Source: a virus (taxonomy: Duplodnaviria > Heunggongvirae > Uroviricota > Caudoviricetes). Taken from it: a stretch of 64,000 nt of DNA. Shown one piece after another: positions 57,001 through 63,000 of the stretch. Each line of letters begins with the position of its first letter. Within the stretch, counting starts at the first letter, position 1. The position numbers are program-made. The DNA is taken from IMG/VR virus record IMGVR_UViG_2721755660_000001. One strand, 5' to 3'.

Positions 57001-60000
57001 ATTTTTCTGGAATTGCTGAATTGCAAACTGACTTTCCTTCGCCCATGTCAGCGTCGGTTCAGTTAATGCCTCGCAGAAAAAGCGCTCCTGCTGCTTAACA
57101 AATTCAACGATATCGAACATTTTTTTGGTCCTGAAAATCAGAAAGGACAGGGGGAGAATTTTCTCTCCCATTCTTCTTCCGCCCGAGCATAGGCGATCGC
57201 TGAGATATAATCGTTGTACGCCTCTTCAGCTTTTTCGCCAGTGAGTGCCAGCTGGGCTTCTTTGGGTAAAAAAAGGCTGCTCATAAGCAATGGTTTATCG
57301 GGGAACATGCTGATAAGCTCCTGCGCCCGATCATCAATCCATTTATCCTTTTCATCCTGAATTTGCTGATTAACCCAGCGACGCTCCTCTATGCGGTCGC
57401 AGGTGAGGTATGCGTTCATGGCGGAACTCCTGATTCCGGTTAATGCATTAAATTAATTTGTCGGGAAAGCTGACAGACAGGGCAGTTACATTCTTCCTCC
57501 TGCTCTTTAGCAAAGAAATATGCAGCGGCCTGTAATGCGATGTCTTCTGGATGTTCCGCGATAAACATAACATTGCCTTCCGTATCAATAACAGAAATAG
57601 CCTCATCAGGCAGGACGACAAAATAGGCGATGATTTTATCATCCATAAAAACTTCTCCCATTATCGTTCCTGCTGGAGTTACGACGCTTTTTACATTGAT
57701 ATTTATTTTTTGATTGAGCATGATATTTCCTTTCAGGCTGGTGAGATTAACGGTTGTCCTTTATTGTTCAGGTAAACTTCTATTGCATCTGAGATAATGC
57801 GAATTTTTTCAATCAGTGAATGTGCGTAAAGTGCATTATTAACGTTCGCTGACGCCATGTAATAACGCCCGTTGTAAAGAATTGCTGTACCGGGTTTAAC
57901 GTCCTCGCGAGAAACTAATGCGGTTCCGTAGTGAGGTTTGAGCATGACAAATCCTCCGGTTAATTAATCCAGATATTTTATTTAATCCCCGATATGTGGT
58001 CGGGGATGGGGTTAATTAAAGATTTACGTTGAAACCAAAGCGGGAAGACTTTTCCGATGTGCGGGAAATATCCAGCAATTTACGGCGCATTTCTTCCGTC
58101 AGATGCTTGAAGGCGTTAAATTCGGCGACAGCGGCGTCAACGTTATAGCCTTTGCTGTGTAGCTCATTGAGGATGCGCATAGTTGGGCTTGGCATATCGA
58201 AGAGCACGGAAGCATCAAGGCTGATAACCTTGCGATCAACATAGTTCATCGTGGCGTAGGGGTGATGCTCTGAAAACCACGACAAAGGGAAATTGATATT
58301 CATCGCAGGAGAAGACAGGGCCAGTTGTTTCTGTTCCCATAGTTGTTTTTCCATGCGATCGAATTCAGCAATGTAGGCTTCCTTGAATGCAGCTGCTTTT
58401 TTGCCGGTGAAGCCCATCACCAGAAAAACGAAGCCGTTTTTGGTGATTTGGTACATTGGGAGTTTGCGCCCGGTTGAGTCGGTGTATTTACTCGACACAA
58501 AATTGTGTTCAGTAAATTCAATCGAACATTCCAGATTGCGAACTTTATCAATTACACGTTCGTGTCGTTTGTCAAAGAAATTTGCAATAGCAACAGATGT
58601 TGTGACGGCACGACCATTCTGAATGGTGATTTCAGGTTGAGAAAGGGCAGGGATAGTAGCCATAATGGCAGCCTCCTTGATTGGTGATTGAGAACCACCG
58701 CAGGAGGTCCTAAGCTCGCTGGCGGTGGACTGTACAGGGTTAGGACTACTGGCAATCAAGGGAACCAGCCCGACCGAAGTCGGCCCCATACAGCCCACCA
58801 TTGATAAGATGTGCGTGTATGTCGATACAAAAAAAGACGCTGGCGCGTCTGTATCGCCTCGATTGTCAGCGGGGTCCTAATCCCGACACCCGTTTTATGA
58901 GGTGCTCGCCCAATATAGCCCCGACATCACACGCAGTCAATACCGTCCTTTCTCGGAAATGCTTTGGCGATGTGGCAGGTGGGAGACCCATTTCGACCCG
59001 ATTCGGCCTACTTATCTTCAGCAATAGTCCCTCGGGCCTCGCCGCTTTACGTGCGACATATTCCCGTCCATGAACCCTTCACCACACCCCAAAACATTCC
59101 CTGTATTGGTCAGCGCCAACTTCCTGCCAGTGTTGCCCGTTCTCACGCCGTTCTCGCTCTCGCGCGGGGATACTCTCTCATCGACCGGATCGCACCCGAT
59201 GATACAGCACGTTTACGTGTAGGGGTCTAAACAGGTCATTGACGCTGTAAAGCTCCAGATTGTTAAAGAGCATTTTGCGGCGGGTTAAGTCGCGCCGTAC
59301 GACTGATTTATGTAGCCCTGTGTAAGGGCGCGATGTTTCTGGCTTGAAATAAATATAACTTGCGGTGATTTTTGTGTAAATACCGTTGGTGGTTATTGTG
59401 GGCAAGAAAATATTACTTAACTGATTTTTAAAGTGATTTATTTTTGAAGGGGACAGATAGCAGGAGGGGATATGCAAAGAAAAACCCGGCGCATGGGCCG
59501 GGCTATTTATCTGGTCCTGTACTCATTCAGTAGAGTAGGGGCCAAGAAATCGTACTCCGTTGAAGTGAATAAGATGAGAAGGTGCATCAGCCACCCATAC
59601 CTCTGTTTCCCATGCGATTTCACCAAGATATCGTCCCATGATGGAGCGATTTGGAAAAGCGGTCACATAGACAAGTCCGGCTGTTGATCCGGCAAACAGC
59701 CTGGCAAGCTCAGCATGCCGCTTCCCATCAACCGGTCCATGACTGGTGACAGACTCAACCAGTAGCAGCCAGTTTTTCGCAGTAAAATGTAGCACCACAT
59801 CTGGCATTTTACCGTGTGAATCCACATCAACACCTAGCCCGGCCAGCAGTGGAGCGTCGAAGTAGCCCCACTTTTCGCCAGTGTCGCCAGCATAGACCAG
59901 CACGCTACCCGGAGCAAAACGTGGGGCGAAGTCCTCTATTATGGCACGGATAAGTTCGCTGTGCTCGCCGGGACTGAGGGTTATTTGCTGGCCCGCAGCA

Positions 60001-63000
60001 ATTTCAACAGGGATACGATTCTGTTCGCGCTCCTTAGCATAGCGGGTAACCAGCGTTTCACGCTCGGCTAAATAGGTTGCAAGGCTATCGTGCCATGCCG
60101 GGCTGCCGAAAGTGCGTAGCATGGACAGAGCAGCAGGTTCGATCTGATAAACAGCCTTCGGGCTGTTCACTGGGCGATCGGGCTTGTCCGGATTGTAGAG
60201 GGCTACTCCAGCAGCGCAGAACTGATGCATAGACTGGCGGCGGAATGTCTCACGAGTATTGGGTGCGTAGACCTTGCCGTAGTGCTCCCGAACCCAATTC
60301 ATGATTGGTGTAATGCCCACAAGCGGATTTTCCGCGTCGGCCCATGCTTTTCCCGGTGTGAGGTTCAGGAGTGCCAGCAAACACAAAGCAGAACGCTCAT
60401 TCTGCTGCGCTCTGGGCAGGCCTAAGGATGCTATAATTTGCTGAGCGGCCTCAATATAATCATTTTGGTTGTTCATGCAGTCAGAGCTCCTAGCTTAGCG
60501 TCAATATGTTCTTGCGTGAGAGTTTCTTGTTGCATAGCCCACTTGCCAAGCTCTATCAGAGTGTCACGGCTTGGGTACTTAATCATCTTGAGGTCGGTTG
60601 CATTGACCTGTGTATGCCCGTTGAATCGACGGAAATACTTATCCACTGCGGTAGTGTTCAGGAACACGGCCAAGCCACGGGCCAGCGCCTCGGGTAACCC
60701 ATGTTTGTTCTCATGAAACACGTTCATGTGATTTTCAAATCCCAACACTGAATACTCACTGAAGGTAGCAGGATCAACGACGCTTGCTACCACTCGGCGC
60801 TTTTCCTCCTTCGACGAGAAACGACGCACCACACAATAAAAACCGTTCGGGTAAAGCCACTTTTCTGTCTCGTCGTTGCGCATGATTGCGTTGGGTTTCT
60901 TCAAACCTTCCACAGGCCAGACAGTGCTACTCATACTCAAATGGCTCGGGTAGATCAGGGGAACAGTTCCTTCTTCGGGCATGCTGCGCAAATGAGCTTT
61001 CAGTCGGAAATCAACTATCGGTCCGGTCGATACCTTCACGCCAATATCAGCCAGCGAACATTGTACGGCGGATGATAACTCAATGGCGCTTTTCTCGTGC
61101 GTGGTCGGCACATGAATAAACCGCTCCGAATCGTCCGGGTACACAATTTGGTCAAATGGGTGTTCGTAGGTGACCAGGTCAAAAAAGCTATCATCGGTCG
61201 AAGTTGTGACTGTAACAGCCTCCTGAAGGCCTCCACGCTCCAGGCGGATGATAATATTTTCCTGCAACACATCGTCATCCCTGAAAGCTTTGCTACGTGA
61301 TTCGAACAAATGAATATGGCGGATTGCTGCCCGCTCAAGTATGAAATTACGGAACGGACGGTAATACGGTCCGTTGCAGAAACTACGTGGGATTATGGCC
61401 ACTATCTGCCCGCCAGGTGCAACCTCACCTACAGCCAGTGCAACAAAGGCGGAATACAGATTTACCGTCTCGATACCGACAGTGCGAAGAGCCTGCCGGT
61501 GGGCTGACTGGCTATTGATCTTCTTGTAAGGCGGATTAAGTATTGCATGGGTATAACCTCGATCCTGTAGACCTTCGGCGGTTGCCAGCTCAATATAATC
61601 CCCTTCGATGATGCGGGGCGTCACTCTCCTGTACCCGGTTAAGTGCTTCGCAAGGTGACCACACAGCTTTTTGTCTATTTCGTAGGCTGTTGCCTCGACA
61701 GACTCAAAGCCAAACTCGCCAACCAGCCAACGGTCGAGGAAGGCGCAAGACAGTGCGCCTACACCAGCGCCTGCGTCCAGTAGACGGCAAGTTTTCATTG
61801 TGCTCGGTGGAAACAAGGAGGCCATAAAACGGGCCACGCCAGAAGGCGTCATGAACTGGCCGAACTCAGCTTTGTGTTTACGCGCGGTACGGGGAGACAG
61901 CTCGCGACGCACGCTGTCTGCGACGTCTAGCTTTTGAAGCATAACTAATCCTCTTTACGTGGCATGATGATGCCAACGTGCTTTTGACATCCTCCACATT
62001 CTGCAGGCGTGAAGGATGTCAAATCACTCTGTGAGCTCAATCAAAAGTCTCATCATTCCACTGCGATTTGATGACCTTTCCGACAAACTGGCAGTTTTCG
62101 TTACACTCAATCATGTCGAATCGTGGGTTGAGCGGCTCCAGGTACGCTTTACCGCTCTCACGAATGAATCGTTTGAAGGTAAATTCATCGCCGTTCATTC
62201 GGGCCACGCAAAAATCGCCATCCTCGATTTCCCGTTCAGGGTCAACGAGTATCAGCATACCTTCAGGGAAGCTGGGTTTACCACCCTGCGGTGCGGTCAT
62301 TGAATGCCCCTTGACCTCCAGCCAGAACGACCTGTCACTGGCTTTTGTGGTGGTGGAGATCCATTTAATCGCATCTTTTGCGGTGTACGAAATATCATCC
62401 ATTGAGAATGCGCCAGCTTGTACGCAGGAGAGTAACGGATATTCGTAAGCGGGGACACGAGTTAATGGCTCTTCAATTGCGAGCGCCATTTCTGCAATAG
62501 ATTTTGCCAGGCTGGGACTGAAATCTCCGACCTTTACATTCAGTATCTTAGCAAGCTGTGCTGCGTGGCTGGCATTTATGGCGTTGATGCCAGCCATTAG
62601 CTGATTAACAGCGCTTTGGGTAACACCTAATTCATAGGCTAATGATTCCTGCGACAGGCCTAACTCTTTCTTTTTAGCGTTAAAAATACTTTTCAGACGC
62701 TTGGCGTCTTCCAGTTGCTCAGGGGTTAACGGTTTCTTTTTCATGTTCATACCATATCACCTTTGGTTATATGTAATGAAATATCTGCGGTGTTGACATT
62801 TTAATAACTGTGCGTAATGATATGGGCATTTTGAAGGAGTCAGTTATGGCGATGAAAAAAGAGACCCTGGCTGATTACGTATACAGGTTCGGTCAGAAGA
62901 AAGCCGCTAAGGACTTTGGTGTGGCGCAGAGCGCGATCAGTAAAGCGCTTCTTGTCGGACGTGAAATTTACGTCAAAACCTTTGATGACGGCAGAGTTGA

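Follow-up and report, generated by a model that had tools for sequence, protein, structure and literature searches.

The closest described relative of the locus considered here is EcoGIII, a restriction–modification (R-M) system that was published in 2012 by Fang et al. and has since been known as the earliest phage-borne R-M system to be examined by single-molecule real-time methylome sequencing. It is carried by P13374, the Shiga toxin (Stx) 2a phage of Escherichia coli O104:H4 C227-11, the outbreak strain of 2011. According to PMC3893438, which cites Fang 2012, the methyltransferase M.EcoGIII acts on the adenine of CTGCAG, and the endonuclease is biochemically active. In the O145 lysogen RM13514, 98.8% of the 2,902 CTGCAG sites were methylated, and no CTGCAG site was methylated in a sister strain without the cassette (PMC3893438). 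CTGC(m6A)G, in which m6A is N6-methyladenine, was also detected in strains 95JB1 and 95NR1 (PMC6602927), and the literature also places m6A at CTGCAG in the C227-11 lysogen. EcoGIII in a recipient cell lowered the entry of a conjugal plasmid by approximately 10^4-fold and did not cleave when the A of CTGCAG was modified (PMC7736820, PMC4288162); the system also protects against lambda-like phages (PMC6602927). Here we analysed a 64,000-nucleotide (nt) stretch of IMG/VR record IMGVR_UViG_2721755660_000001, a virus of the Caudoviricetes, and refer to this whole stretch as the window. It contains two prophages, one on each side of the transfer RNA (tRNA) gene argW, and in the second of these (prophage 2) a methyltransferase gene (M) and an endonuclease gene (R) follow the repressor gene cI. 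We put the probability that this segment is the EcoGIII type II R-M cassette of Stx-type lambdoid E. coli and Shigella phages, a two-gene insert between cI and the left operator and promoter (OL/PL), at roughly 93%. The gene structure, the families, the identity with EcoGIII and the position between the right operator (OR) and OL were all observed directly in this analysis.

The unit consists of the following features, given from its far end towards the repressor:

59523–60476, minus strand: R gene, BsuBI/PstI-family type II endonuclease, 317 amino acids (open reading frame (ORF) list)
60473–61942, minus strand: M gene, N6-adenine DNA methyltransferase, 489 amino acids (ORF list)
61943–62036, minus strand: cI–M spacer, 94 nt, with no ORF and no consensus promoter in its sequence
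62037–62750, minus strand: cI repressor, 237 amino acids, with HTH_3 and Peptidase_S24 autocleavage domains (Pfam)

M and R are adjacent, co-oriented and separate genes that also occur together in their relatives, as in a type II R-M operon. The M stop codon TGA and the R start codon ATG share the 4-nt overlap ATGA (60473–60476, in the sequence ctgcATGAac), GGAG precedes the R start by 10 nt, and the ORF list holds no reading frame in the cI–M spacer or between M and R. M starts 94 nt downstream of cI, which combines the HTH_3 and Peptidase_S24 domains and faces a Cro-family ORF, and is thus a lambda-type cI. The only helix–turn–helix (HTH) gene upstream is cI itself, rather than a C-protein controller. 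The initial annotation of this stretch, made from the DNA alone, had described a co-oriented methyltransferase and endonuclease overlapping by 4 nt directly downstream of a lambda-like cI; the coordinates of the pair proved exact, and both the gap and the Pfam domains of cI agree with that placement.

Consistent with the assignment to EcoGIII, we found that R is identical at 317 of 317 residues to the endonucleases of P13374 (O104:H4) and of strain 95NR1 (O111), and that cI is identical at 237 of 237 residues to the P13374 repressor. M is identical to the P13374 protein at 485 of 489 residues (differences V61L, L239R, H282L and A285T) and to the 95NR1 protein at 487 of 489 (L239R and H282L), so that V61, which lies in motif I, is common to the window and 95NR1. 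Seven complete E. coli genomes carry the window allele at 100% DNA identity. The window also matches, at every listed codon, the EcoGIII rare-codon table compiled from REBASE, which gives CUA at position 5 and CCC at position 17 of M and AUA at 15, CCC at 21 and AGA at 22 of R (PMC6456624). The annotation of P13374 names the three genes as cI, a DNA methylase (ORF31) and a restriction endonuclease (ORF30), and the P13374 cassette has the same cI–M–R order, 4-nt overlap, spacer and flanks, although P13374 itself is integrated elsewhere, with a different integrase (a 1311-bp int gene on the minus strand). A literature search on the P13374 methylase found nothing specific. In the O111:H- strains that carry M.Eco95NR1III and Eco95JB1III and in O145:H28 RM13514, the cassette belongs to an Stx2 prophage and has the argW-proximal location found in the window; the sequences we compared were those of 95NR1, whose prophage has IS1203 insertions. 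The system is therefore already known and ordinary: M is a variant of M.EcoGIII, and R is R.EcoGIII.

Both proteins fall into the families that had been proposed for them. R carries the C-terminal BsuBI_PstI_RE domain (PF06616; E = 4.6e-61, 205.2 bits, cut-off 27; residues 155–307, covering profile positions 1–153 of 154) and the N-terminal HTH domain BsuBI_PstI_RE_N (PF17728; E = 1.2e-54, 184.4 bits, cut-off 27; residues 7–143), and its residues 8–315 align with the SdaI structure 2ixs (E = 1.2e-77), a full-length homologue whose N-terminal domain is a DNA-binding winged helix and whose C-terminal domain is catalytic. R matched the PADLOC model REase_II PDLC03420 over its full length (558 bits) and matched no NCBIfam model. 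In M, the motifs FMTPSGVARFM (residues 30–40), LLDAGAGVGAL (residues 54–64) and NPPY (residues 136–139) appear in that order and approximately 250 residues follow motif VIII. This arrangement of motifs X, I and IV ahead of a long C-terminal target-recognition region identifies M as a gamma-class N6-adenine methyltransferase, in agreement with an Eco57I-type N6-methylase domain on residues 125–220 (Pfam; E = 3.3e-9, above the cut-off). M matched the PADLOC model MTase_II PDLC03227 over its full length (822 bits) as well as PHROG 1600; its matches to NCBIfam were all below threshold, and its similarity to M.TaqI in the PDB sequence search was weak and non-significant (E = 0.37). A PADLOC model of a fused M–R protein, PDLC03359, matched M and then R, and because it covers both proteins in order we regard them as a cognate pair. 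The initial annotation had recognized the gamma-class methyltransferase from LDAGAGVGAL and NPPY and its partner as a PstI/BsuBI-family endonuclease, and the database searches recovered these families.

The namesakes of the endonuclease family, PstI of Providencia stuartii and BsuBI of Bacillus subtilis, resemble the window pair, by family, in their CTGCAG and N6-adenine chemistry and in having a gamma-class methyltransferase. Those systems are chromosomal, whereas the window pair lies behind a phage repressor. The BsuBI genes are also arranged as M followed by R in tandem, and the PstI genes are transcribed divergently. Family membership alone does not fix the recognition site, because SdaI is a rare cutter whose site is the 8-bp CCTGCAGG.

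The specificity, activity, lysogen methylation and restriction of phages and plasmids that others have demonstrated were obtained with proteins identical or 99% identical to these, and would be expected of the window pair as well. In particular, cleavage at CTGCAG by R, and its block by N6-methyladenine, are predicted from the 100% identity to R.EcoGIII. The proposal that the pair recognizes CTGCAG is thus upheld through EcoGIII (100% identical in R and 99% in M), which methylates and cuts this site (Fang 2012, as cited in PMC3893438, PMC6602927 and PMC7736820). The proposal that the pair is expressed in the lysogen as a defence is likewise supported by the 98.8% methylation of a lysogen with the same cassette (PMC3893438) and the restriction of lambda-like phages and plasmids by EcoGIII (PMC6602927, PMC7736820).

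Of 5,426 complete E. coli genomes, 144 contain the 2.65-kb segment at 95–100% identity, in every case on the chromosome; RefSeq labels its products there as a methylase with an Eco57I domain, a BsuBI/PstI endonuclease and a protein of the LexA family. It is also found in 98 deposited phage records, most of them Stx2a-converting, and the cI–M–R order of the window is the same in P13374, in the 144 E. coli genomes and in the 98 phage records. Within these records cI is matched whole in 75 and only over its C-terminal half, at 94% identity, in 23 (for example, NC_049917.1 and LC645410.1), whose N-terminal, DNA-binding half is without a match; the cassette therefore goes with no fewer than two immunity specificities. 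Relatives of R extend beyond E. coli to at least 598 species representatives. R is unusually well conserved across phyla: the 80 best of these relatives are 69–94% identical and are spread over many phyla, among them Chloroflexota, Pseudomonadota, Verrucomicrobiota, Cyanobacteria and Acidobacteriota, as well as Paenibacillus. M precedes R in tandem in all 78 related loci with upstream sequence, and none of the 78 has a cI homologue nearby; among these loci R is consistently more conserved than its methyltransferase (54–84%). The recurrence of the M-then-R unit across so many phyla marks it as a widely travelling two-gene cassette, and its location behind cI is a peculiarity of this phage group. 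A resolvase gene precedes the cassette in one Serratia genome.

Such a distribution bears on what the cassette is kept for. One possibility is that its main selective role is that of an addiction module: if the prophage were lost or excised, M would be diluted more rapidly than R, cured cells would be killed and the prophage would thereby be stabilized, with defence as a by-product. Type II R-M pairs do cause post-segregational killing, as established by Kobayashi and co-workers. The tight linkage of the cassette to the immunity module (98 phage records with the cassette and 98 with the C-terminal half of cI, with the same breakdown by organism) and the spread of a compact M-then-R unit across many phyla, once beside a resolvase in a Serratia island, would fit this explanation. 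By contrast, deletion of both genes from O145 RM13514 was viable and gave wild-type growth (PMC8257988), and the restriction of phages and plasmids has been shown directly. The two roles are compatible, and we regard addiction as a possible but doubtful main role.

The position of the cassette becomes clear from the immunity region around it:

62810–63049, plus strand: Cro-family ORF, facing cI (Pfam)
62751–62845, strand not applicable: OR region between cI and cro (sequence, promoter scan and half-site search)
62756–62771, strand not applicable: operator-like palindrome ATCACCTTTGGTTATA, adjoining the cI start within OR
62793–62821, plus strand: PR-like promoter, TTGACA-17-AATGAT (promoter scan)
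59476–59504, minus strand: intrinsic terminator, AGCCCGGC-CCATGC-GCCGGGTT and then TTTTCTTTG (terminator scan, 59504–59483; fold; sequence)
59352–59380, minus strand: PL-like promoter, TTTACA-17-TATATT, at the left boundary of the immunity region (promoter scan)
59354–59369, strand not applicable: OL operator-like site ATCACCGCAAGTTATA, overlapping the spacer and −10 element of the PL-like promoter

An operator search by shared 15-mers, and one with a 5-nt spacer, returned nothing; with a 4-nt spacer, two exact sites emerged. The half-site pair ATCACC-N4-GTTATA matches exactly twice in the whole 64-kb window, once at OR and once at OL. This operator pair brackets cI, M and R, and so places the cassette between cI and OL/PL, where lambda carries rexAB. 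The end of the unit is marked by its only strong terminator, a GC-rich hairpin with a T-run 19 nt past the R stop codon. The view that the pair occupies the rex-equivalent slot is therefore borne out, with the pair lying between cI and the OL/PL-like site and a terminator after R. The lambda rexA–rexB genes occupy the same slot, likewise have the orientation of cI and a terminator at their end, and are a phage-excluding cargo expressed in the lysogen. They have no homology to the window pair, however, and Rex acts by abortive infection, whereas the window pair is a classical R-M system. The G+C content of the cassette is 50–55%, compared with 44–49% in its flanks, as expected for an acquired insert.

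The layout of the region also suggests how the pair would be transcribed. The repressor-maintenance promoter PRM, which points left, must lie within the OR region (62751–62845). In the lysogen, a cI–M–R message would most likely start at PRM, and during establishment at the repressor-establishment promoter PRE; it would cross the structured spacer of 94 nt and end at the terminator immediately short of OL. Translation of R is probably coupled to that of M through the ATGA overlap, in which case M would be made first and a separate control protein would not be needed. M would then place m6A on the CTGCAG adenine of both strands and R would cut CTGCAG lacking that mark, with the consequence that the chromosome of the lysogen would be fully methylated and incoming unmodified phage and plasmid DNA would be cleaved. 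In this way the prophage may shield its host and itself from competitors; in lambda, rexAB achieves this through another mechanism. The methylated lysogen chromosomes in the literature indicate that M is expressed in the lysogen.

The cI–M spacer itself is highly structured. An inverted-repeat search found a long hairpin with arms at 62009–62023 and 61983–61997 and an 11-nt loop that holds CTGCAG at 62001–62006; a second, short hairpin (61960–61975) is followed by the Shine–Dalgarno sequence AGAGGA, and the RNA fold of the spacer has an energy of −35.7 kcal/mol (z = −3.5). Any role of these hairpins is putative. The loop reads CTGCAG in the window and CTGAAG in P13374 and 95NR1, and among 14 exact IMG/VR matches the count is 12 CTGAAG to 2 CTGCAG, making the window form the minority allele. 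We considered the loop CTGCAG as a methylation-sensitive autoregulatory site and rejected it, because the active O104:H4 and O111 alleles, like the majority in IMG/VR, have CTGAAG.

A promoter of their own, in the cI–M spacer or the 3′ end of cI, would make M and R independent of PRM, and their level would then not track the immunity state. The spacer does begin with TTGACA, the long hairpin could bar read-through from cI, and related cassettes in other phyla function without an upstream cI. Against this, the promoter scan found no sigma-70-like −35/−10 pair between cI and M, the spacer hairpin lacks a U-tract while the only strong terminator lies after R, and the layout mirrors cI–rexA–rexB of lambda. 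We therefore consider such a promoter unlikely and favour transcription of the pair with cI.

It is less likely still that the relevant function is epigenetic, with CTGCAG methylation by M reprogramming host expression and the endonuclease of secondary importance. Deletion of EcoGIII in O104:H4 was reported to alter the expression of approximately 1,900 genes (Fang 2012, as cited in PMC6602927), but R is intact, active and conserved at 100% identity.

We also asked how CTGCAG sites are distributed. Avoidance of the site across whole genomes was not seen, with 14 sites against 20.3 expected in the window and 12 against 14.4 expected in P13374. The first 20.9 kb of P13374 (1–20919), by contrast, hold none against 5.8 expected (scan p approximately 0.02), while the density in its late region is normal, and the 16 kb of prophage 2 that are seen in the window hold a single site against 4.4 expected, namely that in the cI–M hairpin loop, the minority allele. 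This depletion of the early arm is weak, post hoc and unexplained. It would fit a scheme in which the cassette does more than travel passively: the conserved double hairpin would set the ratio of R-M proteins to repressor on a shared PRM/PRE transcript, and CTGCAG would have been removed from the early arm, allowing the phage to survive its own endonuclease while it establishes itself or is induced. We rate this scheme as improbable.

Some observations weigh against the assignment to a working EcoGIII cassette transcribed from PRM. The window M differs by at least two residues (L239 and H282), both outside motifs I and IV, from every M with which it was compared, and the activity of the pair in the source strain is a prediction from sequence identity. 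Transcription of M and R from PRM is our inference, as a scan of this simple kind might overlook a weak promoter inside the unit, and the 16-bp cI–M hairpin might reduce read-through, although it has no U-tract. That the substitutions in M have inactivated the pair or changed its specificity, for example to an SdaI-like 8-bp site, is very improbable: M is 2–4 residues away from characterized alleles and the family includes longer-site enzymes such as SdaI, but R is identical to an active enzyme and would be lethal without a matching M, V61 of motif I is common to the active 95NR1 allele, and seven complete genomes carry the window allele unchanged at the DNA level.

To the left of the PL-like promoter, Rfam models identified a C4 antisense RNA (58718–58805, minus strand; 78.9 bits) and isrK (58830–58905, minus strand; 64.8 bits). 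They lie in an apparently non-coding stretch between this promoter and an Ash/Rha-family gene (58016–58801), and together they look like a P1-type antirepressor control module inside a lambdoid early-left operon. Also downstream of the PL-like promoter, reading by eye, we found a boxB-like hairpin (GCCCT-TACAC-AGGGC, 59329–59315, minus strand) and a perfect rrn-type boxA (TGCTCTTTAACAA, 59272–59260, minus strand); no N-like gene was identified alongside these two elements. Between its kil-like and Rha-family genes (57945–58016) the window lacks an antA/antB-type antirepressor gene of approximately 0.7 kb, and such a gene is found at that place in E. coli E2855 (17522–18725 of the extracted locus) and in P13374 (12271–13201).

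E2855 (27045–42651 of the extracted locus) and 2013C-3250 carry a 100%-identical cassette in a prophage that is split by a Mu-like prophage inserted in a DUF1367 gene; in these genomes the same prophage has HsdM/HsdS type I genes after Q. No stx annotation was found in the stretch from the tRNA genes to the SASA-esterase gene in these genomes with a 100%-identical cassette. The lineage of the window prophage, of which the window shows the part up to its end at position 64000, may thus not be Stx-converting.

The two prophages of the window meet at a single tRNA gene:

47858–47932, minus strand: argW, tRNA-Arg(CCT), 75 bp

TGGTGTCCCCTGCAG, the reverse complement of the argW 3′ end, occurs at 1690–1704 and 47858–47872 (0 copies expected by chance), and the two copies flank prophage 1 (1704–47858) as a 15-bp core. 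Prophage 2 adjoins argW at its 5′ end and has the 24-bp core TTATATCCATTTAACTAAGAGGAC, which corresponds to window positions 47909–47932, the first 24 nt of the tRNA, and contains no CTGCAG. In NZ_CP027380.1 the same prophage lies between argW and yfdC, and its far junction, next to yfdC, repeats TTATATCCATTTAACTAAGAGGAC (approximately 26723–26746 of the extracted locus). Consistent with these boundaries, megablast of positions 43000–53000 against complete genomes breaks exactly at both tRNA ends. The initial annotation had noted that the argW attachment (att) core contains CTGCAG; this is literally true of TGGTGTCCCCTGCAG, but that core flanks prophage 1, and the cassette-bearing prophage has TTATATCCATTTAACTAAGAGGAC as its core. 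A link between the enzyme site and the prophage att core was accordingly rejected, since the TGGTGTCCCCTGCAG core belongs to prophage 1 and the host tRNA, and no functional link between CTGCAG specificity and the att core is indicated. Two different prophages thus use opposite ends of one 75-bp argW. Neither this arrangement, with both prophages flanking argW as in the window, nor any match to at least 80% of the 43000–53000 query was found in the 5,426 complete E. coli genomes. Integration of prophage 2 on the 5′ side means that the promoter of argW has to come from the phage end; upstream of argW we found only weak promoter-like sites (48001–47972, minus strand). Prophage 1 also contains isrJ (19632–19705, plus strand; 54.8 bits, Rfam).

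EcoGIII is annotated in more than 100 genomes, and its recognition here adds nothing new to biology. The correction of the att cores prevents a false link between the enzyme site and phage integration. The value of the assignment lies in annotation: it predicts that DNA of the source strain would be resistant to PstI and would carry m6A at CTGCAG, and that the strain would restrict unmodified incoming phage and plasmid DNA, which is relevant to anyone transforming or transducing it.

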